IMG/VR virus record: IMGVR_UViG_3300021964_010723
Reading direction: 5' to 3' (one strand)
Origin: a virus
Taxonomy: Duplodnaviria; Caudoviricetes
Length of the DNA stretch: 64,000 nt
A program made the translations under genes and the position numbers. Under the pieces are notes generated by a model, which saw only the letters and a program-made list of their open reading frames with translations, was not told where the DNA came from and ran no database searches. Positions 14,301-31,648 of this stretch are shown piece by piece (position 1 is the stretch's first letter; every line of letters starts with the position of its first letter).

Positions 14301-14312
14301 AGGATAGTAAGT

Positions 14313-15779
14313 ATGTTACATTTTTATGATGGTCAAATAAGAAGATATATTACACAGATTGTTAGGGTCTTTAGTAATTTTTCTCACAAAGATATAGATG
14401 GAAATATAAAGAAAATTCCTGTAGTTTATGGAGATTTGGCTAGGCAAGTAGGAAGTATTCTAAAAGATAATTCAGAATTAAAAATTTTAAGTGTTCCTAA
14501 AATGTCTGTTTACATAACGAACTTAGAAATGGATAGGCAAAGAACGAGTGACAGTACATTTGTTAGAAAAACAAATTTAGTTGAACGAGAATATGATTCA
14601 GCAACAAAAGAATACAATAATAAAAAAGGCAAAGGCTATACTGTAGAAAAATTAATGCCAAGTCCCTATACGTTATCTGTGAATGTAGATATTTGGTCTA
14701 GTAATACAGATCAAAAATTACAAATACTTGAACAAATTTTAATGCTGTTCAATCCTAGTTTAGAAATCCAAACTACAGATAATTTTATTGATTGGACAAG
14801 TTTATCTGTTCTAAATTTAGATCAAATAAATTTTAGTAGTAGAAGTATAGGCGCTAGTACAGAAAGTGAAATAGATATTGCATCTTTAACATTGTCTACA
14901 CCTATCTATATTTCTATGCCTGTTAAGGTAAAAAAGCTTGGAATAATTCATCAAATAATCACAAGTATATTTAATGAGAGTGCAAATAATGTAGATTTAA
15001 ATCTAACTATGCCTGAATTATTAGCATATTCAGAAAATCGATTTAAGTCTGACGCAGTACATAAAATTGTTATAGATGAAAATGGAAATGAAATTGTAGA
15101 ATATGGAGACCTAACTGCATCTAAGGACTTAGTTGATTCAGTTGTAGCAACTACTGTAGGGAATTTTGACTTACTTGTCCTTGGAACTACAATAAAATTA
15201 TTAGATAAAACAAAACCTAGTAATAGTTTTAGTTGGATAGAATACTTTTTAAATTATCCAGAACAGTATGTAGATAATATTACGGAAATTAGATTATATC
15301 AAACTGTATACGAAAATGATATTATTGGTACCGTGTTGATAAATCCAAAAAATGCAGAAGAACTTTTTGTAACGTGGGATATTGATTCTTTGCCGACAGA
15401 TTCAATTATATCTGGTCCAACAGGTTATAAAACCAAAATAGATTTTATCATAGATCCTACAAAAACAAATCCAGAAAATCTAAAATTTGCCGGATTACGA
15501 TTGATACTCTTAGATAGTCCATTAGGAGATTTAGACAATACTAATGGCCCTAACGGATGGAAAAACAATGATAACACAGATTTTTATGCTGACATAAATG
15601 ATATAGTTGAATGGGACGGAATTAAATGGGTAATTGTTTTTGATGCAAGTGAACATGTTGGAGATCCTATTTATACTACAAATCTTAATACAAATGTCCA
15701 ATACAAATTTATAAACAACGAGTGGGTATTATCTTATGAAGGAGAGTATCCAAATGGCAGTTGGCGTATCCAATTTTGA
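14313..15779 (+). CDS. Tail sheath stabiliser / tail completion protein (T4 gp15-like) with C-terminal extension
   Basis: FYDGQIRRY..Q..R.FSNF, P..YGD..R, P.MSVYI..L..D..R, MP.PY.L....DIWSSNTDQKLQILEQIL.LFNP.LEIQ. Confidence 0.8.
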   Translation: MLHFYDGQIRRYITQIVRVFSNFSHKDIDGNIKKIPVVYGDLARQVGSILKDNSELKILSVPKMSVYITNLEMDRQRTSDSTFVRKTNLVEREYDSATKEYNNKKGKGYTVEKLMPSPYTLSVNVDIWSSNTDQKLQILEQILMLFNPSLEIQTTDNFIDWTSLSVLNLDQINFSSRSIGASTESEIDIASLTLSTPIYISMPVKVKKLGIIHQIITSIFNESANNVDLNLTMPELLAYSENRFKSDAVHKIVIDENGNEIVEYGDLTASKDLVDSVVATTVGNFDLLVLGTTIKLLDKTKPSNSFSWIEYFLNYPEQYVDNITEIRLYQTVYENDIIGTVLINPKNAEELFVTWDIDSLPTDSIISGPTGYKTKIDFIIDPTKTNPENLKFAGLRLILLDSPLGDLDNTNGPNGWKNNDNTDFYADINDIVEWDGIKWVIVFDASEHVGDPIYTTNLNTNVQYKFINNEWVLSYEGEYPNGSWRIQF

Positions 15780-15791
15780 TATAACTACTGT

Positions 15792-16253
15792 ATGAAGAAA
15801 ATTGTTTGTAGTGGGGCATTATTATATGCAAAAAATAGCCAAAGATTTTTATTCCTCCATAGAGCACAAGGTAAGAATGGTAATTTATGGGGACTTGCAG
15901 GCGGAACTAATGAGGCTAGTGAAACACCGTGGACAGGGCTTGTTAGAGAAATAAAAGAAGAAATAGGCTGCATTGATATTATTAAATCTATACCTTTAGA
16001 AACATTTGTTAGTAATGATGATTATTTTTTGTTCCATACATATTTGTGTATAGTTAAGAATGAATTTTTACCTATTTTAAATCAAGAACATGATGGATAT
16101 GCTTGGGTAAAACTTTCTATGTGGCCAAAGCCTTTACATCCTGGGTTACGAAACACATTAAATACAAAAATTAATCAAGCAAAATTACAAACAGTAATAA
16201 ATTTAATACAATTATTAGAAAAAAACAATGACGAACTCTGTGAAAAAAACTGA
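15792..16253 (+). CDS. NUDIX hydrolase
   Basis: Exact Nudix box G-TNEAS-E-TPWTGLV-REIKEEIG (Gx5Ex7REUxEExG). Confidence 0.9.
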   Translation: MKKIVCSGALLYAKNSQRFLFLHRAQGKNGNLWGLAGGTNEASETPWTGLVREIKEEIGCIDIIKSIPLETFVSNDDYFLFHTYLCIVKNEFLPILNQEHDGYAWVKLSMWPKPLHPGLRNTLNTKINQAKLQTVINLIQLLEKNNDELCEKN

Positions 16254-16584
16254 ATGGGGGTATGAACTACATTGGGCAATGCAAAAAACTTACACTGGAA
16301 AAATTTTTGTTTTTGATAAAATTAGTAATACAGATATGATTTTTCATAAGCATAAAAACAAAAGTTTTTTTGTAAATAGTGGTAAGTTTAAAATTAGATT
16401 TGTTGATTTATCAAACGGAGATTTTAAAGAAACATCTTTAGACGAAGGCGGAACTATTGATATCCCTGCGTTCACACCACATCAAATTTGTTGCACTACA
16501 AGCAATGGATCTATTAACGAAGTAAGTGATAGTAATAACGAAGAAGATATTTACATATTATTACAAGAAAAATTTATTCAATAA
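16228..16584 (+). CDS. Cupin-fold (RmlC-like) small protein
   Basis: V.K.WGYE..W start, H..K..SF.V.SG and G..I.IP...PHQ cupin motifs. Confidence 0.65.
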   Translation: MTNSVKKTEWGYELHWAMQKTYTGKIFVFDKISNTDMIFHKHKNKSFFVNSGKFKIRFVDLSNGDFKETSLDEGGTIDIPAFTPHQICCTTSNGSINEVSDSNNEEDIYILLQEKFIQ

Positions 16585-16844
16585 TGTTACCTATATTACT
16601 AAAAACTAATAGGATAATCCAAGATTTAAATTTTTATAAAATAAAAATTAGACAAATAAAAAATGATAAAGCTAGAGATAAAGCCGATCTTTTATTGAAA
16701 AAATTAAAAGAATATATTGCTGATTTAGATCAAGCGCACAGAATTAGAACAGTAGGTGATTTACGACCAAATTTATTTACATATCATAGAGAACAAATTT
16801 ATAAAACTAGAAAGATGTTAGATAATATCATAAAAGAAAATTAA
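16584..16844 (+). CDS. Hypothetical basic protein
   Basis: 86-aa ORF coupled to the upstream gene by a TAATG overlap. Confidence 0.55.
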   Translation: MLPILLKTNRIIQDLNFYKIKIRQIKNDKARDKADLLLKKLKEYIADLDQAHRIRTVGDLRPNLFTYHREQIYKTRKMLDNIIKEN

Positions 16845-16845
16845 T

Positions 16846-16992
16846 TTATCCTTGATACTTTATCCTATATTTGCAATCTGGCGCATGGTTTTGTATTTGA
16901 TTGTTAATTTCTTTTTCTGATTTACCACAAAATAAACATACTAAATTAGTGTTGTGATCATTAGTTGGTAATCTCTTTTTTGGATAATCCAT
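16846..16992 (-). CDS. Small putative C2HC zinc-finger protein (48 aa), not in ORF track
   Basis: MDYPKKRLPTNDHNTNLVCLFCGKSEKEINNQIQNHAPDCKYRIKYQG; AGGAGA RBS at 17001-17006; fills the intergenic gap exactly. Confidence 0.65.
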   Translation of the reverse strand: MDYPKKRLPTNDHNTNLVCLFCGKSEKEINNQIQNHAPDCKYRIKYQG

Positions 16993-17032
16993 TTATATAT
17001 TCTCCTTAAAGTTTTTTTTATTAAATATTTAT

Positions 17033-18514
17033 ATGAACAGTTTAAAAAATATTGTAATTTTAGGCGGTGGTACAAGTGGTTTTATTTCTGCATTTGTTTT
17101 AAAGAAAAAAATACCTACACTGAACATACAAATTATTAAATCGTCTAAAATTGATATTATAGGAGTAGGAGAAGGCAGCACTGAAAATTTTACAAAATTT
17201 ATAAACTATGTAGATATAGATTACATTGACCTTGTAAGGTATTGTGGTGCAACTTTTAAAGCAGGAATAATGTTTAAAAATTGGAACCAAGAAAATTTTC
17301 TTCAAAGTATAGGTGATGGTTTTAATTATTCTATAGATGGTTATCCTTGCATTTATGCCCACCTTATAAAAAATAAATTATCTAATCATTTATTTGTACC
17401 TGATCATGCTTTAAATAGCAAGGTTAATACTTATTTTTTACAAGATAAAACTGTTTCACCAACATTACAATTCCATTTTGATAATTTTAAATTAAATTCT
17501 TATTTTGAAAATTTAGCTAAAAAAAGAGGTATTCAAGTTATATATGATGATATACAGAATGTTATCTTAGATAATAATGGAAATATTGAAAAATTAGAAA
17601 GTCCGTCAAATGTTTATTACGGCGATTTTTTTATTGATGCATCTGGTTTTAAAAAATTTTTACTAAACAAATTAGGATGTAATTGGCAAAGTTGGAGTTC
17701 ATATTTAAAAGTAAATTCTGCATTTACATTCCAAACAGATGCTGAAGATAAAATTGATATGTGGACAACAGCTCAAGCTATGGATAATGGATGGTTGTTT
17801 AAAATACCGCTGATGGATAGAAACGGCAATGGTTATATATTTGACAATTCATTTACAACGTTGTTGGATGCAAAAACAGAAGTTGAAAATTTTTTAGGGC
17901 ACTCCATTGATGTTGGGAGAGAATTTAATTTTGATCCTGGATATGTAAAACAACCGTGGATAAAGAATTGCTGTGCAATAGGACTAAGTTCTAGTTTTGT
18001 TGAACCGTTAGAAGCTTCGTCAATTGGTGTAACTATTGAACAATCATTTTTACTTTCTAGTTCACTAATTAATTACAATGAATATGTTATAAATCGGTAT
18101 AATAATATCAATGAAAAAATATTAGAAAATGTAAGAGATTTTATTTCTTTACACTATCTAACAAAAAAAACTAACACACCATTTTGGAGAGATATCAATC
18201 AAAATTTAATTTTATCTCCTAAATTATCAGCATTGTTAGAAATTTGGAAAAACAAATTACCTAGCAGATCGGATTTTTACGATTATTCTCCGTATTGCTT
18301 GTTTAACGAATTACATTTTATCTTAATTTTAAATGGTTTAAAATTATTTAATACAAACAAAATAAAACTAGAATATCAAAATACTATAAATGAAAATGAC
18401 GAATTAGAAATATTAAATATACTTGAACAACAGAGAACTTTAATGTGTGACACAATTCCGCATAGACTTATGTTAGAGTGTATTAGGACTATGAAAAAAG
18501 AAAATTATGAGTAG
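17033..18514 (+). CDS. Tryptophan-halogenase-family flavin-dependent enzyme (FDH1)
   Basis: GGGTSG FAD motif, GVGEGST, ATFKAGI (catalytic Lys position), GWLFKIP, FVEPLEA. Confidence 0.9.
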   Translation: MNSLKNIVILGGGTSGFISAFVLKKKIPTLNIQIIKSSKIDIIGVGEGSTENFTKFINYVDIDYIDLVRYCGATFKAGIMFKNWNQENFLQSIGDGFNYSIDGYPCIYAHLIKNKLSNHLFVPDHALNSKVNTYFLQDKTVSPTLQFHFDNFKLNSYFENLAKKRGIQVIYDDIQNVILDNNGNIEKLESPSNVYYGDFFIDASGFKKFLLNKLGCNWQSWSSYLKVNSAFTFQTDAEDKIDMWTTAQAMDNGWLFKIPLMDRNGNGYIFDNSFTTLLDAKTEVENFLGHSIDVGREFNFDPGYVKQPWIKNCCAIGLSSSFVEPLEASSIGVTIEQSFLLSSSLINYNEYVINRYNNINEKILENVRDFISLHYLTKKTNTPFWRDINQNLILSPKLSALLEIWKNKLPSRSDFYDYSPYCLFNELHFILILNGLKLFNTNKIKLEYQNTINENDELEILNILEQQRTLMCDTIPHRLMLECIRTMKKENYE

Positions 18515-19385
18515 ACTTTTTACATTTGGCTGTAGTTTCACATTATATAATTGGCCGACTTGGGCAGATTTATTTGGGTTAGAATTTTCACAAGCCTACA
18601 ATTGGGGTTGTCCAGGAATAGGTAATAGAGGTATTCTAGAAAGGCTTTTCGAATGTGATGCTTGTATGAATTTTGCTCCTACAGATACAGTTGTAATACA
18701 ATGGACTAGTTATTTACGGCATGATTACATGCGAACAAATACTAACGATAAAGGAAAAAACATATCTTCATGGAAAACTTGTGGCAGTATTTTTAACAAA
18801 AATAATCAAAATATTTTCGACCGTAATTGGATTAATAAATTTTGGGAAGAACGTGTTTATTTTATACATACCCTTAACGCAATTGTAGGAGCAATAGGAT
18901 TTTTAGACGGTAAAGGTTGTAAGTGGGCAATGACGTCTATGAATGATTTATGTGCTGTAGGAAATAATATTGAAGATAAAACTTTTAGCGGAGAATATCA
19001 AAATTCAAAAAATTTACCAAAATTTTGGGATTTAGATAAAAATTTAGATTTTTATCGAACAAAAATTTGGGAAGATAATAAGGACAAATGGATATCGCCA
19101 ATAATAAATGTAATAGAAGAATGTCCTGAATATAATGCGACATTTAATTTTGATAAAAATAGTGAAGGCAAATGGGAAGAAGCTCATCCCTCAGTAATGC
19201 AACACGCTATTTGGTTATTAAGTTTAAAAGATTATCTACAATTAGATGTTAATTTAACCAAAGAACAAGCTAAAATGGTTAATGAAATAACTAATTTTCA
19301 AACTACTGCAAAAAATTATAAAGATTTTGAAGAAAAAATTAATAACACGCTCTGGGGTAAAACAATAAGAGTTGCAGGTTTATAG
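18507..19385 (+). CDS. SGNH/GDSL-like hypothetical protein
   Basis: FGCSFT block I-like motif, G.PG.GN block II, D.VVIQWT...R.D, and a C-terminal HP. Confidence 0.55.
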   Translation: MSRLFTFGCSFTLYNWPTWADLFGLEFSQAYNWGCPGIGNRGILERLFECDACMNFAPTDTVVIQWTSYLRHDYMRTNTNDKGKNISSWKTCGSIFNKNNQNIFDRNWINKFWEERVYFIHTLNAIVGAIGFLDGKGCKWAMTSMNDLCAVGNNIEDKTFSGEYQNSKNLPKFWDLDKNLDFYRTKIWEDNKDKWISPIINVIEECPEYNATFNFDKNSEGKWEEAHPSVMQHAIWLLSLKDYLQLDVNLTKEQAKMVNEITNFQTTAKNYKDFEEKINNTLWGKTIRVAGL

Positions 19386-20018
19386 CTTATAATACCAAGA
19401 TTCTGTTTTGCTTTCAGATTCAACAAAATTATAATTATGAGATAAAAGTAATTTTTTTATTTTTTCTATATCTTTAGAATTTTCTATTGTAAAGCATTTT
19501 ACATTATATTTTACAAAATCAAAATTCTCTAAAATTGCATATTCACTGCCTTCAACATCTATGCTTATGTAATCAATATCTAATGGGCTTTGAAAAAGTT
19601 CTAACAGGTTATTAAGTGAAATTGTTAAAACATTTATTTTTAAAAAATGTTTTATAATATTTTCATCAATAACATCAATTTCTTTTTCTAAGCTTGCTCT
19701 AAAATTCCAACCATAAAATAAATTTTCATTTGCACAAAATTTAAAAGGTAAAATTTTTCCAGTTTCATTGTATACACATAGATTAGATACAAAAACATCT
19801 CTGCAGTTTTGTAATGATTGTAAAAAAAATGGGTTAGGATCTACACAAATTCCATTCCATTTGTAAAATTTTTCAAGTAAAAAAGTATTATTAGCTGTTA
19901 TACCGTCAGCAGCTCCTATATCTACAAAATAACCCTTTTCTTTATAACTTAAACTATCTAAAACAAAAAAGTCTTGACCTTCTTCTGAAAACTTTAATTG
20001 ACTTCCTGGAGGACCCAT
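19380..20018 (-). CDS. FkbM-family SAM-dependent methyltransferase (probable start 20018)
   Basis: YFVDIGAADG...NNT..LE..Y.W.GICVDPN, IDYISIDVEGSE..IL..FDF; TAATG overlap with the gmhB-like stop. Confidence 0.85.
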   Translation of the reverse strand: MGPPGSQLKFSEEGQDFFVLDSLSYKEKGYFVDIGAADGITANNTFLLEKFYKWNGICVDPNPFFLQSLQNCRDVFVSNLCVYNETGKILPFKFCANENLFYGWNFRASLEKEIDVIDENIIKHFLKINVLTISLNNLLELFQSPLDIDYISIDVEGSEYAILENFDFVKYNVKCFTIENSKDIEKIKKLLLSHNYNFVESESKTESWYYKL

Positions 20019-20581
20019 TATGTGTTCCATGGTAAAGAATTTGCAAATTCGTATAAATTATCAACAATTGTAGTTTTATTTTTAATTTGTTTGTACATAG
20101 ATTTTCCTAACATTTTTTCAGTTCCTAAACCTTGTCCTGTCTTTACTAAAATTGGTAGTGCACCTACACGCAGAGCTGCTCTTAAATCACTAATACGATC
20201 TCCCACAAATGCTCCTCCTTTAAATTTTAAACCACACTCTTGTTCAGCTCTTTGAAACATACCAATATTTGGTTTTGCATATATATCTTTCTTAAACGAT
20301 GTAGTACTGTAATATATTCCACTTATACTTGTGCATCCAACAGCACCTAATTTTTCTAATAGAATTTGATGAACATTCTGCACATCTGATATAGATATTT
20401 CATTGGTATGAATACCTGGTTGATTTGATAAAATTACAACGTTATAATTTTTATCTCTAATCATCTTAATTGCTTCTAAGCTTCCATCTATAGGACGTAC
20501 TTCATTAGGAAATTTTATAGGCTTGTTGATATCATGTAAGATAGTTCCATCTCGGTCTAGTCCAATTGTAATATTATGCAT
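20018..20581 (-). CDS. gmhB: HAD phosphatase, D,D-heptose-1,7-bisphosphate phosphatase/histidinol phosphatase family
   Basis: LDRDGTI, SNQPGI, KPNIGMF, FVGDRISDLRAA...GA.PILV.TG.G. The Zn-binding CxH/CxC residues are not evident. Confidence 0.75.
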   Translation of the reverse strand: MHNITIGLDRDGTILHDINKPIKFPNEVRPIDGSLEAIKMIRDKNYNVVILSNQPGIHTNEISISDVQNVHQILLEKLGAVGCTSISGIYYSTTSFKKDIYAKPNIGMFQRAEQECGLKFKGGAFVGDRISDLRAALRVGALPILVKTGQGLGTEKMLGKSMYKQIKNKTTIVDNLYEFANSLPWNT

Positions 20582-21167
20582 GGATTGCGTTTATATTAAA
20601 TGATATTGAAATTCTTTCTTGTTCTACTTCTTGTTGTTCCACTTTGTGTAACAAATAACTAGGAAATATTAAAAGCATTCCTGATGTAGGTTGGATAATT
20701 AAATCTGTTGTGTTAAATTCTGTAGGAAATTTTTTTTTGCAATTATACGGCCAACTGCTTTCTATTACAGTCTTATTTTGAAAACATATTTTTGCATCAT
20801 TTTCTTTACAATTTAAGTAATAAACGCCGCTATATAGATGTGGTATATGATGATGTGATTCGTGATAACTGTAAATTCTATTTATATTGAACCATGACGA
20901 TGCAATCGATAAATTATCGTCTAATCCAATATCATTATGTAAAATTGTGGTTTGCTCTAAAATAAATTTTTTGAAATCAGTAAAAAGTATTTCGTCTAGT
21001 AAGTTTAACCTACCGAAACTAGTATAACTTCCAACAGGATAGTAATTTGAAAAATTTTTGTTTTGTTTTTCATAATCTTTACAATATTGTATTATATCTT
21101 CCGTATTGTTAAAATAAAAATCAGTCCTCCAACTAGGCGCCCCAAATATAGTAAAAAAATTAATCAT
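20574..21167 (-). CDS. 2OG-Fe(II) oxygenase (TIGR02466-like phage family)
   Basis: SWFNIN....YH..H.H....YSGVYYL, G.LLIFPSYL.H.V, RISISFN. Confidence 0.85.
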   Translation of the reverse strand: MINFFTIFGAPSWRTDFYFNNTEDIIQYCKDYEKQNKNFSNYYPVGSYTSFGRLNLLDEILFTDFKKFILEQTTILHNDIGLDDNLSIASSWFNINRIYSYHESHHHIPHLYSGVYYLNCKENDAKICFQNKTVIESSWPYNCKKKFPTEFNTTDLIIQPTSGMLLIFPSYLLHKVEQQEVEQERISISFNINAIHA

Positions 21168-22648
21168 TATACTAACCTTCTTTTTATTACTGTTTGGGTA
21201 TTATTAGGATACTCTTTAATTTCATTGTATGTAAACGCCATAAAATTTTCTATATTTATTTTACTCCATTCTGTCATACGATTTTCTTTTATGTCCTTTC
21301 TTGCTATAGATGGTAGTAAATTCCCGGTTCCTGCTAGAATATAGCTCCACAAAGGCCAACCTGCTATACCATAAATAGGTAAAAAAGAAGCATAATTAGG
21401 TAATCTAATTTTACAAATTTCTATAATTTCACGTACTTGCGTTGTCAACATGTTTTCTTGATTTACATATTTCCAAAATTGAGTATCAGATCTACCAGCA
21501 TGATAATGTAAGATTAGAAAATCTTTTAACAAATCATACATAAAAGTATGTTGTAAATTATAATTTTTAATATTTTGTTCATCACACGTTTCAATTACAC
21601 TAGGTGATAAGTATTGACAAAAATCTTCTAATTGACATATTGTAGTATGGATACTTGTAGCTTCTAATGGTTCTGCAAAAGCGGCTGACAATCCAATACA
21701 AAGACAGTTTTTGATCCATAACTTGTCAAGTCTACCAGAATCAAATTTAATAACTTTAATTGGATCTATAGACTTACCAAAATAGTCTGATATTTCTTGC
21801 TGAGCATTATCATCAGATAAAAAATCACTAGAATAAACATAGCCACATCCTTTACGAGTAACCAATGGTATTTCCCACATCCACCCATTTTTTTGAGCTA
21901 CTGCTTTTGTTACTGGTTTAATAGTGTCTTTTTCATTGTACTTTATTATGAATGGCATTGCTCTATCAACAGGTAACTTATCTTTATAACTATGCCAGGA
22001 TACACCAAGTTTGTTAGCAATTAAACGTGTAAATCCAGATGCATCAATAAAAAAATCTGCGCTTATAATTTCATTATTACTTAGAACTAATTTTTCTACA
22101 AAACCATTTTCATTTAATAACACATCTAATACTTTTGTGTCCTTATGTTTGACAGAACTCCCACAAATCTTTTTAAAATATTTTCCTACCTTGTGCGCAT
22201 CAAAATGATAAGCTGCAGGTCCGTCAGGTTGGAATAATGTATCTTTATTATGTTCAAGTAAAATTCCATCTTTTGAACTATAATGCATTTTTTTTGGACC
22301 ATACTCTGCTAAACAATAAGCGAATGAATAATCAAATGCCTGCGAACTTGTTATTGAGCCGTCAATAGGAGCTACATAACTTGTTTTATCTCCCCTCCAA
22401 TTAACAAATTCAATTCCTAATTTTGCTGTAACATCACAACTGTTTACAAAATCATTTTCATTACATCCGTAATTGTGTGTAATGTTTTGAATAATATTTG
22501 TTAAAGATCCTGTACTACCTTCTCCAGCACCTATAATACCTATATTTGACGATTCAATTACTGTAATATCATGAATTGGTTGCTTTTTAGAAATAATTAA
22601 TGCTGCTAACCACCCGGCTGTTCCACCGCCAACTATTACTATTTTCAT
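21167..22648 (-). CDS. Tryptophan-halogenase-family flavin-dependent enzyme (FDH2)
   Basis: GGGTAG, GAGEGST, TAKLGI, YHFDA, GWMWEIP, FAEPLEA. Confidence 0.9.
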   Translation of the reverse strand: MKIVIVGGGTAGWLAALIISKKQPIHDITVIESSNIGIIGAGEGSTGSLTNIIQNITHNYGCNENDFVNSCDVTAKLGIEFVNWRGDKTSYVAPIDGSITSSQAFDYSFAYCLAEYGPKKMHYSSKDGILLEHNKDTLFQPDGPAAYHFDAHKVGKYFKKICGSSVKHKDTKVLDVLLNENGFVEKLVLSNNEIISADFFIDASGFTRLIANKLGVSWHSYKDKLPVDRAMPFIIKYNEKDTIKPVTKAVAQKNGWMWEIPLVTRKGCGYVYSSDFLSDDNAQQEISDYFGKSIDPIKVIKFDSGRLDKLWIKNCLCIGLSAAFAEPLEATSIHTTICQLEDFCQYLSPSVIETCDEQNIKNYNLQHTFMYDLLKDFLILHYHAGRSDTQFWKYVNQENMLTTQVREIIEICKIRLPNYASFLPIYGIAGWPLWSYILAGTGNLLPSIARKDIKENRMTEWSKINIENFMAFTYNEIKEYPNNTQTVIKRRLV

Positions 22649-24108
22649 TGGCCGTTATTTTTGTAGTATTCTATTAGATTGGTATGAGGTGTACATCTAT
22701 ATTTTCTTACTTGTTCGTCTTTATAAAACTTTTCTAATGCAAGTTCTGCAGAGTATTGAATGTCTTTATTTCCATCATTTACTAATTGAAATCCGTATTG
22801 TACCATCAAACAAATCCAATTAGGAACTTGAAACATTGTAAAGCTATTGGGGTCAAATTTCCTTGAAATGCTATATCTAAAATTATAATCATTTATAATT
22901 TTTTCTATAAATTTTTGAGTAGGACTTGGTTGAAACTTTGCTCTTACATAATCCCAAAATATTCCAGTATTTGTGCTGTTAGAATAATGCATGTTTACAA
23001 AATCTATTACATTTTCAAAATAATTTTTTATGATTGTATTGTATAACGTTTTATCATTTTCTAATACTAATCCTAATCTAAGTCTATTTTCTAATTCTAC
23101 AGCACCTTTAATAATTAAACTAATTCCAGTGCTTTCTAATGGTTCTACAAATCCTGCACTTAGGCCAATTGATACAATATTTTTTTCCCAAAAATTTTCT
23201 ATGTAATACGGAGTCCAATCTATTACCTTTAGATTTTCTTTTTTTAACCTACCATTCCAATATTTGCATAAAAAATCTTTTGCTAAATCAATATCTGTAA
23301 CATCTCGGTTAAAAACTAAACCTGAACCTATCCTTGATTGCGTTGGAATTTGCCAAATCCAACCATGTTCAACAGCATCACAAATAACATAAGGTCTAAC
23401 TTCTTGTTCGTAATTTTGAAAATTCACACGTCCTGCAATTGCTGTGTTACAAAATAATCTATTATCAATTTCAACTTTTTTTTGTTTTTTTAAAATACTT
23501 TGAAATCCTGTGCAATCAACGTATAGATCTGCACTTTCAATGCTACAATCTATTAATTCTAAACTTGTTATTTCTCCATTAATATTTTTGTTTACTGTTA
23601 CTACTTCTTTTTTTATAACTTCTATACTAGAAGAACATCTATTTTGAATGTAAGTAACTAATTTTCCTGCATCTACATGAAATGAATAAATTCCTGTCTC
23701 ATGTAAATCTACTAAATTATGATTTACTGCACTATCGTACAACATGCATGCATAATCCTTATAATCTAGATTATTTTTATAGGCTAAAACTTCCCAAATA
23801 TCCATACTTAAATGGTTAAGATGCAAATTAGCAAAAAACGGGTGCCAAATTTTTGATCCTTCTTTTTGCCAATTAGAAAACAGTATACCAGCTTTAAAAG
23901 TTGCATCTATATTGGTGAACCAATCATTAAATTCAAAACCACAATCTCTCATAAAACCAAAAAAATCTAGAACAGTTCCTTCTCCCACACCGATAGGTGT
24001 TCCATGTTCTTTATCAATTACGGTTACTCGGGTACGTGGTAAATTCTTAGAAAGATATGCAGCAGTCATCCATCCAGCAGTTCCGCCGCCTACTATGATT
24101 ATTCTCAT
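22645..24108 (-). CDS. Tryptophan-halogenase-family flavin-dependent enzyme (FDH3)
   Basis: GGGTAG, GVGEGT, ATFKAGI, GWIWQIP, FVEPLESTG. Confidence 0.92.
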   Translation of the reverse strand: MRIIIVGGGTAGWMTAAYLSKNLPRTRVTVIDKEHGTPIGVGEGTVLDFFGFMRDCGFEFNDWFTNIDATFKAGILFSNWQKEGSKIWHPFFANLHLNHLSMDIWEVLAYKNNLDYKDYACMLYDSAVNHNLVDLHETGIYSFHVDAGKLVTYIQNRCSSSIEVIKKEVVTVNKNINGEITSLELIDCSIESADLYVDCTGFQSILKKQKKVEIDNRLFCNTAIAGRVNFQNYEQEVRPYVICDAVEHGWIWQIPTQSRIGSGLVFNRDVTDIDLAKDFLCKYWNGRLKKENLKVIDWTPYYIENFWEKNIVSIGLSAGFVEPLESTGISLIIKGAVELENRLRLGLVLENDKTLYNTIIKNYFENVIDFVNMHYSNSTNTGIFWDYVRAKFQPSPTQKFIEKIINDYNFRYSISRKFDPNSFTMFQVPNWICLMVQYGFQLVNDGNKDIQYSAELALEKFYKDEQVRKYRCTPHTNLIEYYKNNGQ

Positions 24109-24111
24109 TAC

Positions 24112-24846
24112 TTATATAAAAAATTGTTGGTTTAATCTATATATGTTGTTGGTAAACATTTTGTCATATATGTATGCACTATGGAAAATATTTTGCTGAT
24201 ATAAAATCATACGGTTATATTTCATTTCAACTAAATGTATTTTTTTCCAATCTCCTTCATCTTCAATAACAAACTTTGTTGGTTTTATTGTTCCATGTAT
24301 ATCTAAAAAATTATGGTTAAATTCTGATATAATTTTATCATCTAAAGCATAAAAGGCAGTGCCACCAGCACATTCTTCTTCAGTGTTTAAATAAATTGTA
24401 GAAGCAAATGCTCTAAAATCAGGATTGTCTATATGTGGAACTCTAGGAGGTAAATTTTCAGACGTCATTACATTAACCATAAATGTAGCTCTTGTAAAAC
24501 TTGAAATTATTTGATCATTGCAGCCTGTTTTTTCAAATTCTGGGTTTACAACTTCTGGAAAAGTTTCTTTTATAATTTTATCATATACTGGCCCTAAAGA
24601 GTCTAACAAATAAAAAGCATTTATTCTACCACTATTTTTACCTGCAGGTAAATCTGAAGTTATTCTTTCATTACAAGTAGGAGGAATTAAAAGTGCTAAT
24701 TCTCTAACTAGGTCTGGATTTTTATAAAAATCATCTACAATAATTACTTTTACTTTGTCAAATTTTGTTTCTAAATTTACAATTTTAATGTTGAAATTAG
24801 GATTTGTTTGAAAAACTTCATGCTCGTTAATAAATTGTTTAATCAT
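24112..24846 (-). CDS. DUF6445-like putative 2OG-Fe(II) oxygenase
   Basis: IIVDDFY.NPD.VR..AL, PHID...FA..IYL, GGTAFY, MKYNRMILY....FHSA. Confidence 0.65.
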   Translation of the reverse strand: MIKQFINEHEVFQTNPNFNIKIVNLETKFDKVKVIIVDDFYKNPDLVRELALLIPPTCNERITSDLPAGKNSGRINAFYLLDSLGPVYDKIIKETFPEVVNPEFEKTGCNDQIISSFTRATFMVNVMTSENLPPRVPHIDNPDFRAFASTIYLNTEEECAGGTAFYALDDKIISEFNHNFLDIHGTIKPTKFVIEDEGDWKKIHLVEMKYNRMILYQQNIFHSAYIYDKMFTNNIYRLNQQFFI

Positions 24847-26641
24847 TTGTAATTTTAATTAAAAAATTATACTCTGGCAGATACAAATATTCTATAAGAC
24901 TATTTTTTAAAGTTTGTAACGCATCTTCTAATGTTTCTACTAATGGATCTCCTCCTAAATTAAAACTTGTGTTAAATAAAATTGGTACTCCAGATTCCTT
25001 GTAAAATTCTTTTAAAAGATTATAGAAATGCAAATTTTGTTCTTTTTTAACTGTTTGTATTCGACAAGTATTGTCTATATGAATAATACTAGGAATTTGC
25101 TCCAATTTATCTTTTTTGCAATTAACAGCATACATCATATGAGGACTTTGATCCATACCTTTTAAATCAAACCATTCATGAACATGTTCATGTAAAATTG
25201 ATCCTGCAAAAGGTCTAAAATATTCTCTATTTTTTACTTTGTTTACAAAATCTTTTCCGTCTGCAAAGGTAGGATCAAAAAGAATGCTTCTATTACCTAA
25301 TGCTCTTGGTCCGCTTTCAGATCTACCTTGAAAAATTGAAACTATATTTTTATTTTTTAAAAGATTTACTACGTCTTTATAAGAAGCGTTTTCAATAATT
25401 TCTGCATTGTTCTTTGTTGCCAAGTCTTTTATTTCGTCTATTGTATAATTATATTTTGGTCCTAAATACAAACTATCTGCATAAGTTCTAACATTTGTAT
25501 CACTTGTTAATCTATGATATACAAGTAAAGCTGCGCCAATACATGTTCCTGCATCGCTTGAAATAGGTTCTACATAAAAATTTATATTTTCATCTTGTAA
25601 AAAATCTAAATACCAATAGTTTGCAACACAATTTAATCCGTAACCTCCAGAAAAAACTACATTTGAAATTCTTGTATCTCTAACTGCTTTTTTAATAATT
25701 TCTAATGACTCTGCTTGACTTTCAGTTTGAACTGCATAGGCCATATCTCTTCTATTTTGTAGGAGAGTTACATCTAAATTATTTTCCCAAAACTCATCTG
25801 GTGTTTGTAATTCTTTATATCTACCAAAATTAACTTCAGCACCATTAGGGTAAGTAGGAATAATAACATTTCTATCTGTTGTTCGCCAATCTCCACCGTT
25901 TCCGTCTGTGTACAAAGGTGGTATTTTAGAATTAGAATTACCATAAGGAAAAAGCCCCATTGTTTTTCCAGCCTCAATAGGTGCCCAGCCACAATATTGA
26001 GTTACTGCTTCATACGCCTTTGTAATACCTGCTGTATCATCGATAATTAGTTCATGTGTTCCATCTTCACCAAATTGTTCTGATGTAAAATTTTCCATAC
26101 GACATCCGCCCCAAGGTCCTCTACCTCCTTGATGTTTGTACACTGTTTGTATATTATTTGGATATGAACATGTAAATATACTCTCTAATTCCCAAGTCAT
26201 TTCTGTTATATTATTCATTTGTAAAGGTATAAATGATCCTGCACCATCAATTATTACAGCAGTTGCAACATCAAAGCCACTTCTGTAAAATGCACAAGCA
26301 GCATGCAGTTTATGATGTATATGACTTAGATCTATTACTTGATGATGGTTAAACAGGTCAGCTTTTCTATCTATAAGTCCAAATTTTCTAGCCAACCCAG
26401 TATAAATATCATCTCCTGTAAAATCTACATGTCCTGAAGATTCTTGTAAAGGTTGGGTGTGCGCTATGACAAGATAATCAATTTTATCTGTATATTCTAA
26501 TATTTTTGCCATACATGCATATGGTCCTCCGTCATATTTGTGTCTACTTAATCTTTCTTCTTCAATAGAAAAAATTATTTCACCATTTTTAAGTAAACAA
26601 ACGGCTGCATTATGACCTCTTGTAATCGCTGCTATCCACAT
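24839..26641 (-). CDS. Carbamoyltransferase (NodU/CmcH family)
   Basis: H.A.VCLL..GEI....EEERLSR.K, HH..HA..AFY.S.F, DG.G, GK.MGL.PYG, SGG..LNCVAN, D.G..IGAA, GPRALG.RSIL, K.RE.FRPFA, P.L.NTSFN..G.PLVET. Confidence 0.95.
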   Translation of the reverse strand: MWIAAITRGHNAAVCLLKNGEIIFSIEEERLSRHKYDGGPYACMAKILEYTDKIDYLVIAHTQPLQESSGHVDFTGDDIYTGLARKFGLIDRKADLFNHHQVIDLSHIHHKLHAACAFYRSGFDVATAVIIDGAGSFIPLQMNNITEMTWELESIFTCSYPNNIQTVYKHQGGRGPWGGCRMENFTSEQFGEDGTHELIIDDTAGITKAYEAVTQYCGWAPIEAGKTMGLFPYGNSNSKIPPLYTDGNGGDWRTTDRNVIIPTYPNGAEVNFGRYKELQTPDEFWENNLDVTLLQNRRDMAYAVQTESQAESLEIIKKAVRDTRISNVVFSGGYGLNCVANYWYLDFLQDENINFYVEPISSDAGTCIGAALLVYHRLTSDTNVRTYADSLYLGPKYNYTIDEIKDLATKNNAEIIENASYKDVVNLLKNKNIVSIFQGRSESGPRALGNRSILFDPTFADGKDFVNKVKNREYFRPFAGSILHEHVHEWFDLKGMDQSPHMMYAVNCKKDKLEQIPSIIHIDNTCRIQTVKKEQNLHFYNLLKEFYKESGVPILFNTSFNLGGDPLVETLEDALQTLKNSLIEYLYLPEYNFLIKITND

Positions 26642-26650
26642 AATTCTCTT

Positions 26651-27688
26651 TTAGTTTTTAGGAGGAGTTAAAGAGCCGTTACTAATAGAAAACTTTTTTT
26701 GCTCTTCAATGTTGGGTTGAATAGGCATTGGTAAAACTTTATTTTTGTGAATTATTGATTTTCCTAACTTTTTTCTAACATCACTAATAACCTTATCTAA
26801 TAAAGTTGTATCCATTTCCATTAATTCATCATTTAATCTTTCTATGTGATCTTCTAATGAAATTCTTATTGGACTATATATTCTTTTATCTTTTCCTAGA
26901 TCAACAATATTGAATTTTTTAAAATTTGGATACGATATATTAATTGGAAAAGTAGATCCTAAAATAATTGTTCCATCTTTATTGAAACTTCTAGCTATGT
27001 GTTGCCCTACACTATCACATCCTATAAAATGATCGCACATATCGATAATACCTGCCCAGATTCTTAAGTCAGGAATTTGCGGCATAGCAACTGGATATTT
27101 GTTTACATCATTTTTATCAAGAGTAATAGGAAATTCAGACATTAAAATTACAGAATAATCTTTTTTAAGATTATTAATTATGTCAACAACATTATTAAGA
27201 TGCATACTTCGAGAACTTGGATCGATTACAAATTCATCATTATTTACGACTCCTCTGCCAAAGGGCTGAATTACAATAACCTGATCGAACCCAGTTTTTT
27301 CTCTAACTTCTTTAACAACTTTATAAGCTTCAGTTACTTCGTATTTGTTTAGAACTATTTTTGGAGGAGGAAGGTCTCTTATTCCTTGATTTGATATTGC
27401 AATATCAAATGCTTGAGATAGACTACATTTTTGATTATAATATTCCCAAATTCTATATGGTTCAGGAGATATAACATCTCTATGTATAATATGTTCTGCA
27501 AATAAACCTTTATGCCAGTTATCATATGCCTTTGAATGAAGTATAGGATGTCCTTTAAAAAAATCCATTCCGCCTTCACAAACTATGATAAAATCATCTG
27601 TTTTTTCTGCTAATTTTTCAAATGCAGGAATAGAAGTAATTACTCTACCTGCACCTCCATTTATAAAATATGCTTTTGATCTTTCCAT
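26651..27688 (-). CDS. Glycosyltransferase, GT9 (heptosyltransferase)-like fold
   Basis: GG.GRVITSIPA.EKL N-terminus, VIQPFG, A.II..CDHFIGCDSVGQHIA.SF......ILGST.P. Confidence 0.6.
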   Translation of the reverse strand: MERSKAYFINGGAGRVITSIPAFEKLAEKTDDFIIVCEGGMDFFKGHPILHSKAYDNWHKGLFAEHIIHRDVISPEPYRIWEYYNQKCSLSQAFDIAISNQGIRDLPPPKIVLNKYEVTEAYKVVKEVREKTGFDQVIVIQPFGRGVVNNDEFVIDPSSRSMHLNNVVDIINNLKKDYSVILMSEFPITLDKNDVNKYPVAMPQIPDLRIWAGIIDMCDHFIGCDSVGQHIARSFNKDGTIILGSTFPINISYPNFKKFNIVDLGKDKRIYSPIRISLEDHIERLNDELMEMDTTLLDKVISDVRKKLGKSIIHKNKVLPMPIQPNIEEQKKFSISNGSLTPPKN

Positions 27689-27706
27689 ATTGCTCTCATC
27701 TAGGAG

Positions 27707-27714
27707 TATTTATA
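27707..27714 (-). promoter_or_regulatory. Canonical T4 late promoter TATAAATA ahead of the enzyme operon
   Basis: tatttata on + strand, 19 nt upstream of the ATG at 27688. Confidence 0.65.
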
Positions 27715-27733
27715 GAAAAAATAAACAGAAATT

Positions 27734-28447
27734 TTAATTTTTGGATTCACTAGGCTTGTCAGTTTTAGGCATTATTCCTGGATATGGAGGGAACATTTTT
27801 GCGGCTTGAAAAGCTGGAATATGTGCTAAAGCAGTGGGCAATTCTCTTAAAAGTCTTCTGAACGTTATCCACTGATTCTTGAGACTATCTGGCATATCTT
27901 CACTTATGGCACCGTCAGTTTCTTCTAACATTCTATTTCTTTGCTCTCTTATATCGTCCCAAGTTAAGTTTACTTCTCCTTCATTTTCCCAACCTTTTAC
28001 TGGTAAGATAAATTTTTGTTCCTCAAAATCATATCGTATTTCAAATTCATCATATATATCTCTAGGTTCATATTGATCTGAATAATAGACATGTGAATAT
28101 CCTTCTGGAGCTTCATGTAAAATTAGCCATTGTCTATTGGTTCTCCAAATGACATTGTCAGGATCGCCAATGTCATTTCCTATATAAGCAAGTAAGGCCA
28201 TTTCGTCATTTTCTGTAGCATCGACAGTAATCCTTACACAATCTACATCTACAGGTCTCTCTAAATCTCTTTCTTCATATAAACACCAACCTTTTTCTTT
28301 TCCTGTTTCTATATCAATTTCAAAAGTTAAAAAACGTGGTCCTTTGTATGTCCATGTTCCAGTTTTACCTAAAGAAAAATCAGTACTTCTCCACTCATTA
28401 GGTATAGGAAAAGTAAATTGTTGTTCTATTATTGGATTTTCTGCCAT
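27734..28447 (-). CDS. Tail fibre assembly chaperone-like protein
   Basis: C-terminal W..IRE.RNRML.ETD........W..FRR.LR.LP pattern of phage tail assembly chaperones. Confidence 0.65.
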   Translation of the reverse strand: MAENPIIEQQFTFPIPNEWRSTDFSLGKTGTWTYKGPRFLTFEIDIETGKEKGWCLYEERDLERPVDVDCVRITVDATENDEMALLAYIGNDIGDPDNVIWRTNRQWLILHEAPEGYSHVYYSDQYEPRDIYDEFEIRYDFEEQKFILPVKGWENEGEVNLTWDDIREQRNRMLEETDGAISEDMPDSLKNQWITFRRLLRELPTALAHIPAFQAAKMFPPYPGIMPKTDKPSESKN

Positions 28448-28462
28448 TTAATGTTTCTCCAT

Positions 28463-29305
28463 TTAAATATATGTAATCTTAACTATACCCGATCCGCCCA
28501 TGCCCATCCCGTTTGAACATTGTTTTGCCCAGTTATTACAATAATTGCTTGTTCCTGATCTTCCTCCGCCTGCTGGCCAATTTGTATAACACCCACAAGA
28601 ACACCAACTATCTGACGAACTTGTTCCTTGATGCATACCAATTATGGGTGGTGAACCAGTAAAAGTAGTTGTTCTATAGCAATGACATGCACCGTGTCCA
28701 AATTTATGCCCTACACTCCCCATCATACCAAAATCAGATCCAAAAAATCCACAAATATTACAGTTTGCACAGCCACTTGTATGATGTCTAGGACCCCATG
28801 CATCTCCATTACACATCCATCCTCCACAACCGCCTACTACACAGAAATTACTTAGATTATGTCCAGTTACATACGACCTACAGCCCATACTTGCGCTGCA
28901 GGTATGTGAATAATGACAAGGCCAACTGCCTCCTGCACATACAGTATACTGGCAGCCAGGTACTGTTGCTATTGTCTTTGTAGCATAGTTGCCTCCTGCA
29001 CCTCCAATGCTAAAACTACAGCAATTGCAACAGGTGTGTCCTGCTCCACCACCTCCACCTGACCAAATTTCAAAAGTTACTTGTGAAACATTTGCAGGAA
29101 CTGTCCATAAACAGCATTTTCCATTTGCTTGTTCACAGCAACCTACTTGGCAATTTCTGCAACAAAATCCTCTTGGATTGTAAATCCAATCAACTCCGTA
29201 TCCGTTACCTGCTCCAGTTGCTATATGATCACAAGTTACAATACTACAACAAGATGCATCTATATTTTGTTCAGTTATTCGTTTATAATTTGCATATGAC
29301 GCCAT
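28463..29305 (-). CDS. Cys/Gly-rich protein, paralogue 1 (putative polyglycine adhesin-like)
   Basis: 32 Cys in 280 aa; FEIWSGGGGGAG, GGAGG, GGCGG, AGGG and GGSGIVKITY motifs. Confidence 0.75.
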   Translation of the reverse strand: MASYANYKRITEQNIDASCCSIVTCDHIATGAGNGYGVDWIYNPRGFCCRNCQVGCCEQANGKCCLWTVPANVSQVTFEIWSGGGGGAGHTCCNCCSFSIGGAGGNYATKTIATVPGCQYTVCAGGSWPCHYSHTCSASMGCRSYVTGHNLSNFCVVGGCGGWMCNGDAWGPRHHTSGCANCNICGFFGSDFGMMGSVGHKFGHGACHCYRTTTFTGSPPIIGMHQGTSSSDSWCSCGCYTNWPAGGGRSGTSNYCNNWAKQCSNGMGMGGSGIVKITYI

Positions 29306-31021: not shown

Positions 31022-31648
31022 TTATACAGTGATAATTCTCCAACCGTAAGTATCATTACTATAAACAATGTCAAATGCTGCATTTACAGTATTTACTTGC
31101 ATGTCTTCATTATCTCCCATTATAACTTCTCCGTTACGTACTAAAACTAAAGGATTAGTATCAAAAGTACCAGCAAGATCAAAAAATCTTATAGTGTCTC
31201 CCATTGTAGGATCTAACGGAAGCGTTGCTGCAATAAATCCTGCTGATGTATCTACAAAATATGCTTGCCAAGATTCTGCAGTAAATCCACCTACCTTAAC
31301 AGAATAAAGGTATTTAACGCTTTCCCATCTTAAATTTGCAGAACCATCAGTAACTATTGCTTGCGTGTCTGTACCATCTTCCGGCGGTAAAATATATGTT
31401 GTATTTTGTGCAGTCTCACTTGGTTGGAATGCTGTAAAACCGCCACTTGTTGCATTAAATTTTAATGGCAAATTATCATTGATATTAAATTCAGCTACTG
31501 ATGACACAGTCCCTGCCGCATCGCCTACTACTAATCCAAGTGAGGTAAACTCAATTTTAGCTGGAGAATCTGGAACGCTCATTATCCTTTGCGACATATG
31601 AACTAGTGAGTCGTTAATAGGATATTTTCCAACTGTAATTCTTCTCAT
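31022..31648 (-). CDS. Putative virion structural protein
   Basis: Y.LP..DG...Q...TDGS.NL.W, plus a C-terminal YFVDTS.G.I..TLP..P..GD.I.F.D..G.F.TN.L...RNG..I.G domain typical of phage fibre/baseplate proteins. Confidence 0.6.
   Translation of the reverse strand: MRRITVGKYPINDSLVHMSQRIMSVPDSPAKIEFTSLGLVVGDAAGTVSSVAEFNINDNLPLKFNATSGGFTAFQPSETAQNTTYILPPEDGTDTQAIVTDGSANLRWESVKYLYSVKVGGFTAESWQAYFVDTSAGFIAATLPLDPTMGDTIRFFDLAGTFDTNPLVLVRNGEVIMGDNEDMQVNTVNAAFDIVYSNDTYGWRIITV

Follow-up and report, generated by a model that had tools for sequence, protein, structure and literature searches.

Gene Content and Integrity of the Locus

The DNA considered here is a 64,000-nt stretch of a virus of the class Caudoviricetes (IMG/VR virus record IMGVR_UViG_3300021964_010723), which represents the structural module of a large marine myophage and is called the window below. 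Between positions 17033 and 27688 it carries an island of tailoring enzymes (Table 1), whose best-supported description is two-layered: a core coupled to the fibre genes, formed by a GT9-fold transferase together with an O-carbamoyltransferase and frequently accompanied by an SGNH-like enzyme and by heptose supply, and a lineage-specific shell. In the window, the shell comprises three halogenases, two 2-oxoglutarate (2OG) oxygenases, a GmhB-like phosphatase, an FkbM methyltransferase and an SGNH-like protein. A first-pass annotation of this DNA had already named three halogenases, a NodU-type carbamoyltransferase, two 2OG-like proteins, a GmhB-like protein and an FkbM protein; Pfam and NCBIfam matches, together with invariant residues in the case of the DUF6445 protein, bear out each of these assignments at its position. 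The same annotation likened the island to a biosynthetic cluster, a comparison that is loose: the families present tailor glycans and proteins, and the island has no scaffold enzyme.

Table 1. Features of the window and the matches on which their identification is based (aa, amino acids).
Feature	Position	Strand	Identification or remark
Tail sheath	8496-11888
gp15 homologue	14313-15779
NUDIX hydrolase	15792-16253	+	Pfam/PHROG
Small cupin (phrog_7851, T4-GC307)	16228-16584	+	Pfam/PHROG
Flavin-dependent halogenase A	17033-18514	+	PF04820, 289 bits
292-aa protein, possibly SGNH-type esterase/acyltransferase	18507-19385	+	Motifs; convergent with the minus-strand operon, 6-nt overlap
FkbM-family methyltransferase	19380-20030	-	PF05050 48.6 bits, TIGR01444 43.7 bits, both above cut-off
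HAD-IIIA phosphatase, GmhB-like	20018-20581	-	TIGR01662 71 bits, cut-off 44.6
2OG-Fe(II) oxygenase (PF13759 2OG-FeII_Oxy_5 / TIGR02466)	20574-21167	-	PF13759 71.7 bits
Flavin-dependent halogenase B	21167-22648	-	PF04820, 329 bits
Flavin-dependent halogenase C	22645-24108	-	PF04820, 291 bits
DUF6445 protein	24112-24846	-	PF20043 62.8 bits
NodU/CmcH/TobZ-type O-carbamoyltransferase (T4-GC303)	24839-26641	-	Carbam_trans_N and Carbam_trans_C
GT9-fold, heptosyltransferase-like glycosyltransferase, phage-specific clade (phrog_8954; T4-GC302)	26651-27688	-	PHROG, fold, profile
T4-type late-promoter-like box TATAAATA	27707-27714	-	18 nt before the transferase ATG (27688), just after the chaperone-like gene
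Tail-fibre assembly chaperone-like protein, 237 aa	27734-28447	-	phrog_9740 and tail-fibre-assembly PHROGs
Three paralogous Cys/Gly-rich proteins, 279-280 aa	30171-31010, 29315-30157, 28463-29305	-	phrog_4205, Gly_rich_2
208-aa protein, tail-protein N-terminal-like domain	31022-31648	-	PHROG; syntenic in relatives
106-aa conserved fibre-module protein	31661-31981	-	Syntenic in most related loci and in P-SSM2 (T4-GC297)
Giant tail-fibre protein, 2689 aa	32001-40070	-	Homologous to annotated S-SSM7/P-SSM2 tail fibres
Giant tail-fibre protein, 1813 aa	40108-45549	-	Homologous to annotated S-SSM7/P-SSM2 tail fibres

Near-identical DNA was found in metagenomes from estuary, seawater and salt marsh, in more than ten studies. 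In an independent seawater assembly, a single contig of 12,074 nt covers positions 16795-28868 with roughly 99% identity, which shows the island to be genuine, contiguous DNA and no assembly chimera. Its guanine-cytosine (GC) content (0.27-0.32 between 16000 and 28000) is lower than that of the flanking structural genes (0.33-0.41); the GC-richest part, at 0.41, is the region of the Cys/Gly-rich paralogues. No match to the island was obtained by megablast against 50,697 phage records, and a search for distant DNA similarity with the neck/gp15 region returned nothing beyond short matches to jumbo phages.

The GT9-Fold Transferase and the Carbamoyltransferase

The transferase is assigned with a high score to phrog_8954 (468 bits), and its relationship to known glycosyltransferases appears in its predicted structure. 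When an AlphaFold model of the protein (mean predicted local confidence, pLDDT, of 93) was compared with the PDB, the 30 best matches were all GT9 enzymes, including 3TOV, WaaF, WaaC and TibC, the last of which is a protein O-heptosyltransferase; the structures matched (3TOV, 1PSW, 2GT1, 2H1H, 6DFE, 4RAP, and 4RB4) gave E-values from 1e-9 to 8e-7 and TM-scores of 0.44-0.61. A profile of the family also aligned in hhalign with E. coli WaaF (E 2e-5) and WaaC (E 3e-4), over the donor-binding half. In these alignments D225-S-V-G-Q-H is matched to D-T-G-L-S-H of WaaC and D-S-G-L-M-H of WaaF, and R160 to the Lys of the WaaC K-H-W motif. From 385 relatives of the transferase, collected from 1.84 billion representative proteins, 70 were aligned; D225 and H230 are invariant among them, and R160 and S226 nearly so. 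The model and the WaaF profile agree with the first-pass label of a GT9-like transferase.

The N-terminal, acceptor-side half of the protein had no sequence similarity to WaaC or WaaF that hhalign could detect. A near-invariant Arg15 was considered as standing in place of the N-terminal catalytic Asp of WaaC, and this idea was dropped, hhalign having left the N-terminal halves unaligned. The transferase gave no Pfam match, PF01075 included, and scored 17.7 bits against TIGR02201 (cut-off 170). In one related Atlas cluster, about 22% of the members carry PF01075.

The family is phage-specific and, to judge from the sequences searched, essentially absent from cellular genomes. Its Atlas clusters are 100% viral, and when 185,579 prokaryote species were scanned, each represented by a single genome, there were six matches, all of them on contigs of metagenome-assembled genomes (MAGs) that have the same phage gene order. 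One of the homologues at 27-29% identity lies in an unannotated phage-like block. The transferase was also modelled as a complex with one of the Cys/Gly-rich paralogues; the score of 0.00 gives no verdict either way.

The second core enzyme scored above threshold for both of its domains (Carbam_trans_N, 77.7 bits; Carbam_trans_C, 194 bits), and its solved relatives are 7XB6, NovN, GdmN and TobZ (E 1e-52 to 1e-35). It does not reach the NodU equivalog cut-off, which makes it a member of the family and not NodU itself. Its identity to the enzymes of the cultured cyanophages S-SSM7 and Sf-FS3 is 65-67%.

Conservation of Gene Order in Related Phages

A scan of IMG/VR identified 438 stretches that encode relatives of the transferase. 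The best 80 were analysed, that is, the nearest of the 438, many of which are near-duplicates of one another; related loci that have to be told apart are designated by number below. The shared order consists of a giant fibre, two small proteins, the Cys/Gly-rich paralogues, the fibre chaperone, the transferase and the carbamoyltransferase. A chaperone-like gene is present in all 68 loci that have at least 1 kb of upstream DNA, and three paralogues are found in 54 of the 56 with enough upstream DNA. Similarly, 37/39 loci with 6 kb or more of DNA upstream of the cassette have a fibre homologue there. The carbamoyltransferase follows the transferase in 74 out of 74 loci, directly in 24 and with one or two genes between them in 50. 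Co-occurrence with the Cys-rich genes across relatives had been put forward as a check by the first-pass annotation: it holds for the core, in every locus that is long enough, and fails for the halogenases, the DUF6445 protein, the FkbM protein and the SGNH-like protein, which come and go.

The same gene order exists in the cultured cyanophages S-SSM7, Sf-FS3, S-CAM1 and P-SSM2. The two P-SSM2 proteins encoded ahead of the transferase are homologues of the paralogues, with an hhalign probability of 99%, and the transferase lies just downstream in all 12 records of cultured phages that contain homologues of the paralogues. Between the phage studied here and Sf-FS3, gp15 is 25% identical, the transferase 57% and the carbamoyltransferase 67%, which implies either that the module moves between phage backbones or that it is far more constrained than they are.

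This difference can be compared with the rest of the window, which also encodes three tube-like genes and neck genes. The tail sheath is closest to those of the jumbo phages PA5oct, Atu_ph07, and Phosso (45-46% identity) and not to those of cyanomyoviruses. These jumbo phages infect Pseudomonas, Agrobacterium and Sinorhizobium; the nearest relatives of the fibre/enzyme module (24839-27688) are Synechococcus and Prochlorococcus myoviruses. On this comparison of protein sequences the genome is a mosaic, the sheath and the fibre/enzyme module having different nearest phages.

In three MAG-binned phage contigs, the enzymes are reduced to transferase, SGNH-like protein and carbamoyltransferase, or to transferase, carbamoyltransferase and transferase. 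Fibre genes flank the enzyme set on both sides in L089, L090 and L092 and were detected on the downstream side only in L091; in L089 and L090 the SGNH-like homologue lies between the transferase and the carbamoyltransferase. A short transferase homologue of Vibrio phage D505 is encoded between two giant tail proteins.

Several further observations were made on these loci. The order fibre-transferase-carbamoyltransferase occurs in L088-L092 under the MAG labels Neomarinimicrobiota, Methanobacteriota, Chitinophagales and Crocinitomicaceae; L089 and L092 are contigs PBPT01000016.1 (335 kb) and PBPT01000082.1, and an identical locus was seen on two contigs of one MAG. Such contigs are probably phage contigs that were mis-binned. 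In L025, two unannotated genes of 200 codons (11064-12271) are inserted between the transferase and the carbamoyltransferase, and in L079 (12818-19362) up to five 2OG oxygenase genes are present in a single island.

The Fibre Block Upstream of the Core

The fibre open reading frames (ORFs) of the related loci are homologous to both giant fibre proteins of the window. Both of these also bear CBM_5_12 carbohydrate-binding modules near the N-terminus. Of the two small proteins that follow, the 208-aa protein has a C-terminal stretch of 100 residues that matches many PHROG families of tail, tail-fibre and tail-spike proteins, as well as a weak match to T4_gp9_10_N; the gene of the 106-aa protein is preceded by ATAAATA at 31998-32004.

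The three Cys/Gly-rich paralogues are placed after the long fibre genes and before the chaperone-like gene. They are 70-71% identical in pairs and have about 30 Cys each, with 24 Cys positions invariant among the three; one of them matches PF21722 (Gly_rich_2) with 28.5 bits. An AlphaFold model of a paralogue, of moderate quality (pLDDT 73), resembles the fibre of cyanophage Pam3 (7YPX; Z 17.9, 192 residues, root-mean-square deviation 2.8), the tail-tip protein of Bxb1 (Z 12) and the glycine-rich domain of ALK (Z 8-10). Because of these three matches, the paralogues are regarded, as far as the model can be trusted, as fibre or adhesin proteins of the virion that contain a domain rich in polyglycine.

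A contig from an RNA library joins position 28982 to 30691 and omits 1708 nt of the paralogue region. Either a variant that lacks one of the copies or a collapse of the paralogues accounts for this junction, which suggests copy-number variation or recombination among the three genes.

The chaperone-like protein scores 23.9 bits for Phage_tail_APC, just below the cut-off, which its homologue in L025 passes.

Operon Structure and a Late-Type Promoter

As the first-pass annotation had described, the genes of the minus strand overlap or nearly touch; there are nine between 27688 and 19380, with spacings that range from a 9-nt gap to a 13-nt overlap. The annotation had also reported a perfect TATAAATA ahead of this operon, behind the Cys-rich triplet and the chaperone gene; the box exists at that place (Table 1) and is conserved in relatives.

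The raw count of TATAAATA in the window is not above chance. ATAAATA is depleted across the window, with 24 copies against 46.8 expected from shuffled sequence, and its minus-strand copies are mostly found just upstream of minus-strand genes (8485, 13111, 17026, 27707, 31998, 46293, 59581, and 60121). Depletion and placement are consistent with a T4-type late promoter under selection. In relatives, the motif is present in 40/46 distinct regions ahead of the chaperone gene and in 23/52 ahead of the transferase gene; with a background of 1.3% of 100-nt windows, this is an enrichment of about 35-fold before the transferase gene. Scans for sigma-70 promoters and for terminators gave results at chance level.

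In RNA libraries from two studies, there are contigs that cover portions of halogenases A and B, the DUF6445 protein, the carbamoyltransferase, the transferase, the chaperone and the paralogues, and two of them bridge the chaperone-transferase junction; the depth of these libraries is very low, DNA carry-over is possible, and the runs were found with the island itself. The region 13000-17400 (neck, gp15, NUDIX, and cupin) is almost uncovered by the same contigs, a gap from which no conclusion is drawn. Judged by its promoter motif, late expression of the island is likely.

The Variable Shell

The frequency of the shell enzymes was determined in the 57 related loci that have at least 8 kb of downstream DNA. 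The HAD phosphatase is near-constant (54/57), followed by a halogenase (44/57, hence missing in 13), the DUF6445 protein (40/57), the cupin (13/57) and the FkbM protein (2/57).

All three halogenases score far above the PF04820 cut-off of 21 bits, are 27-34% identical to one another and retain GxGxxG, the catalytic Lys and the Glu of E-P-L-E. The WxWxIP motif is present in B and C (in C as W-I-W-Q-I-P), and halogenase A reads W-L-F-K-I-P. Halogenase B has every signature motif and aligns with solved Trp halogenases and with VirX1 at E-values from 1e-66 to 1e-53; its alignments to PrnA, RebH and VirX1 stop at about residue 400-445 of the query, short of a comparable substrate module. In P-SSM2, the halogenase and the transferase are 60 kb apart. 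The halogenases are recurrent but facultative, and no evidence of a particular tie between them and the paralogues was found.

Ahead of halogenase A, a gap of 188 nt contains a 48-aa ORF with four Cys (16846-16992, minus strand). A perfect TATAAATA is located 33 nt upstream of its ATG, at 17026-17033 on the minus strand, and the start codon of halogenase A, on the opposite strand, overlaps it by its first base.

The DUF6445 protein has H138-x-D140, H222 and R237 invariant among 20 homologues; this H-x-D...H pattern with an Arg suggests that it is probably a 2OG-Fe(II) oxygenase. A search with the family profile returned no solved relative by sequence.

The phosphatase scores below the cut-off of both GmhB equivalogs (PRK08942, 104 bits against 178; TIGR00213, 48.9 against 149.6), and its sole relatives in the PDB are GmhB enzymes, that is, heptose 1,7-bisphosphate phosphatases.

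The 292-aa protein, called SGNH-like in the first-pass annotation, may deserve this name on account of its motifs: G8-C9-S10, G39-N40 and E225-x-H227-P228 are invariant or nearly so, and an Atlas lead points to DUF6071/GDSL. The label found no backing in a Pfam or PDB match, and Pfam searches with 22 homologues gave noise only.

The Supply of Heptose

In P-SSM2, S-SSM7 and Sf-FS3, genes for GmhA, a kinase, a nucleotidyltransferase and an epimerase adjoin the core pair. Likewise, loci that are free of halogenases, such as L079, instead have an HldE-like kinase/nucleotidyltransferase, an epimerase, the cupin, GmhB and several 2OG oxygenases. The main reason for proposing ADP-heptose as the donor of the transferase is that relatives place heptose-activation genes beside the core pair. 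The cupin family phrog_7851 sits in the heptose clusters of P-SSM2 and L079, and it is possible that the cupin and the NUDIX hydrolase of the window belong to the same sugar module.

A Proposed Function and Its Alternatives

We tentatively favour, with a confidence that falls a little short of even, the hypothesis that the island encodes a late, fibre-coupled system for heptose-carbamoyl decoration, acting on virion adhesins. It would be a tailoring cassette expressed late and coupled, physically and in evolution, to the receptor-binding fibre tips. The transferase would use, in the cytoplasm, a donor that is most likely of the ADP-heptose type and place the sugar on a virion protein of the same gene block, for which the Cys/Gly-rich adhesin paralogues or the giant fibres are the best candidates. 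The carbamoyltransferase would next O-carbamoylate the attached sugar, and the GmhB-like phosphatase, perhaps with the cupin and the NUDIX hydrolase, would feed or police the sugar-nucleotide pool. Glycosylation in the cytoplasm followed by O-carbamoylation is the most economical mechanism and resembles the action of TibC/Aah on adhesins of bacteria. The FkbM and SGNH-like proteins, the two 2OG oxygenases and the three halogenases would be add-ons that tailor the same glycan or protein, or else unrelated cargo. We infer the donor, the acceptor, the order of the reactions and any role of the halogenases. The link of the core to the virion is based on its strict order with the paralogues and the chaperone, its persistence across backbones, the fibre genes on both sides and the late-type box. 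Also in favour of decoration are the GT9 fold with its conserved donor motif, the heptose genes of relatives, the restriction of the transferase family to phages, the fibre fold of the paralogues and, with the caveat of DNA carry-over, the RNA-library contigs. The original proposal of a virion-linked pathway is retained for the core, which is tied to the fibre genes, and given up for the whole island, which is not one fibre-linked pathway.

A more far-reaching version, which we regard as improbable, has marine myophages place a carbamoyl-heptose on their adhesins, to which, in lineages such as the present one, the halogenases, 2OG oxygenases and methyltransferase would add marks of halogen, hydroxyl and methyl on that protein or glycan; together these would be a virion code that could be tuned for host range or for the stability of the adhesins. 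If the marks did share one molecule, this would be the first native substrate for viral flavin-dependent halogenases.

Several points weigh against decoration of the adhesins. The counts given above are not independent and overstate the independence of the loci. The acceptor is proposed from gene order alone. With regard to the transferase, no GT9 threshold of Pfam or NCBIfam is reached, and WaaC, WaaF and TibC match its fold equally well, so that the fold gives no pointer to a protein acceptor; canonical GT9 enzymes work on lipopolysaccharide (LPS) cores, and one distant homologue, part of a glycan/2OG cluster, has no fibre gene within 8 kb of it. The set of shell enzymes differs freely from one relative to another, and among the Trp, Tyr and His columns of the paralogues none was found that follows the presence of a halogenase, a weak negative from a comparison that is confounded by lineage. 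Finally, no HldE, GmhA or HldD gene was found in the 64-kb window, which has only the GmhB-like, cupin and NUDIX genes, which accounts for the donor only if genes elsewhere or in the host provide it.

Part of this evidence is shared with the hypothesis of cargo in a hyperplastic region, which we consider rather unlikely for the island as a whole and a serious rival for the shell genes. According to this hypothesis, the site between the fibre and neck/gp15 genes is permissive and most genes of the island are independent auxiliaries that form no single pathway, with separate roles, mostly metabolic or concerned with small molecules, for the halogenases, the 2OG oxygenases and the FkbM, SGNH-like and HAD proteins. 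The variability of the shell, from halogenases and DUF6445 down to the rare FkbM gene, is what it would predict, and the literature describes the region as hypervariable. The divergence of the halogenases indicates that they are not recent duplicates, and the nearest cultured-phage homologues of halogenase B are found among talC, hli, petE, nrdC and tRNA genes (S-PM2, Syn1) and not beside fibre genes, which also counts against a role in virion decoration. The low GC content of the island, at 0.27-0.30 against 0.33-0.41 around it, and the many small aromatic substrates taken by VirX1 in vitro (PMC8407142) fit as well. However, cargo leaves the invariant transferase-carbamoyltransferase pair and the near-constant HAD phosphatase unexplained; in the window, a single late-type box precedes nine genes that are coupled in translation, and the halogenases recur in the same island of relatives (44/57) more often than random cargo would lead one to suppose.

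The hypothesis of host-surface remodelling, which is unlikely in our view, holds that the enzymes modify the LPS or an envelope glycan of the host and thereby block superinfection or prevent progeny from sticking to debris; the position beside the fibre genes would then reflect only a shared host-interaction region. GT9 enzymes of known function are mostly heptosyltransferases of the LPS core, FkbM, SGNH, GmhB and NodU-type proteins are typical glycan-tailoring families, and distant homologues of the transferase are found in glycan-type clusters. In Pseudomonas, moreover, the core heptose is 7-O-carbamoylated. For pelagimyophages and cyanomyophages, remodelling of the host is also how the LPS-like genes of the host-recognition cluster have been interpreted in print (PMC7029224), and such genes have been labelled "LPS genes" (PMC3037559). 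On the other hand, the transferase family is phage-specific and not host-derived, and its acceptor half is dissimilar in sequence to WaaC and WaaF. In addition, its place next to adhesin and chaperone genes is strictly kept, even after transfer between backbones, and a late-type promoter fits virion assembly better than exclusion, which is usually early.

A diffusible small molecule, that is, a halogenated, carbamoylated heptose metabolite comparable with heptose-bearing nucleoside or aminoglycoside antibiotics and directed against competitors or at manipulation of the host, is highly improbable: the closest solved carbamoyltransferases (NovN, GdmN, and TobZ) are natural-product tailoring enzymes, and flavin-dependent halogenases and FkbM proteins are classic secondary-metabolite families, but scans of the ORFs of the island and its surroundings revealed no nonribosomal peptide synthetase (NRPS), polyketide synthase (PKS), cyclase, aminotransferase or exporter, in agreement with the first-pass annotation on the missing scaffold synthases; the giant ORFs are fibre homologues only, and the fibre linkage would be left unexplained.

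Implications for Phage–Host Recognition

If the core does decorate fibre tips, protein heptosylation, so far known for bacterial autotransporter adhesins, would be widespread in host recognition by abundant ocean phages; the 438 viral contigs that encode transferase relatives give the breadth of the possible effect. It would also provide a function for the long-unexplained "LPS genes" in the fibre regions of cyanophages and pelagiphages. In that case, predictions of receptor binding from the adhesin sequence alone would miss part of the specificity, and closed-search proteomics of virions would miss the modified peptides. If the enzymes act on the host surface, they would form a late-acting envelope-editing system, which is likewise undescribed for such phages. 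The three halogenases in one putative late operon are a good place to seek the native substrate of viral halogenases.

Comparison with Known Systems

The paralogues share by model a glycine-rich fold of the polyglycine-II type with the Pam3 fibre and the Bxb1 tail-tip protein. They are set apart from these proteins by about 30 Cys each, by their arrangement as three in tandem and by the enzyme operon directly after them.

Halogenase B belongs to the same family as VirX1 of cyanophage Syn10 and has the same signature motifs (E 5e-53). VirX1, which is active in vitro and whose active site is open, has no known native substrate (PMC8407142). Unlike VirX1, the enzymes of the window are predicted halogenases, identified from sequence, and are three divergent paralogues in a fibre-linked operon that is likely late.

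With regard to the transferase, the bacterial autotransporter systems TibC/TibA and Aah/AIDA-I, each a heptosyltransferase with its adhesin, offer a parallel. TibC has a GT-B fold of the GT9 type, is among the best structural matches (E ~2e-8) and uses ADP-heptose as its donor. It is a cytoplasmic enzyme encoded beside the adhesin that it modifies; the phage transferase likewise adjoins adhesin genes, whose products are acceptor candidates only, and its sequence identity to TibC is about 10%. WaaC and WaaF have the same fold and a homologous donor half, in which D-[ST]-G-x-x-H is aligned, and the phage family differs from them in the acceptor half and in being restricted to phages. Freeman and colleagues reportedly described, in 2023, mycobacteriophage glycosyltransferases encoded near structural genes that modify virion proteins, and these are said to involve other glycosyltransferase families, sugars and hosts. 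Our literature searches found no report of virion heptosylation encoded by a phage.

Among the closest known systems is the T4-GC302/303 "LPS gene" cluster of the cyanomyoviruses S-SSM7, Sf-FS3, S-CAM1/3 and P-SSM2/5, which is located in the hyperplastic or host-recognition region of marine T4-like phages and has an orthologous transferase (41-58% identity) and carbamoyltransferase (48-67%). A carbamoyltransferase, prnA and "LPS genes" (T4-GC302-308) were described in S-SSM7, S-SM2 and P-SSM2 by Sullivan et al. (2010; PMC3037559), who left the function of the "LPS genes" open and even raised the possibility of "stuffer DNA." Later, a host-recognition cluster with LPS-type genes was reported between VrlC and gp14, and modification of the host O-chain was proposed (Zaragoza-Solas et al., 2020; PMC7029224). 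As in the cyanomyovirus cluster, the island of the window is associated with a fibre, Cys/Gly-rich proteins, a protein of about 220 aa, the transferase and the carbamoyltransferase, adjoins neck/gp15 genes and includes variable 2OG oxygenases and halogenases. What is distinctive for the window, by comparison, is the missing heptose activation (it lacks an HldE, GmhA or epimerase gene), a jumbo-type backbone whose sheath is nearest to those of PA5oct and Atu_ph07, and the presence of three halogenases and an FkbM gene in one operon that is likely to be expressed late.

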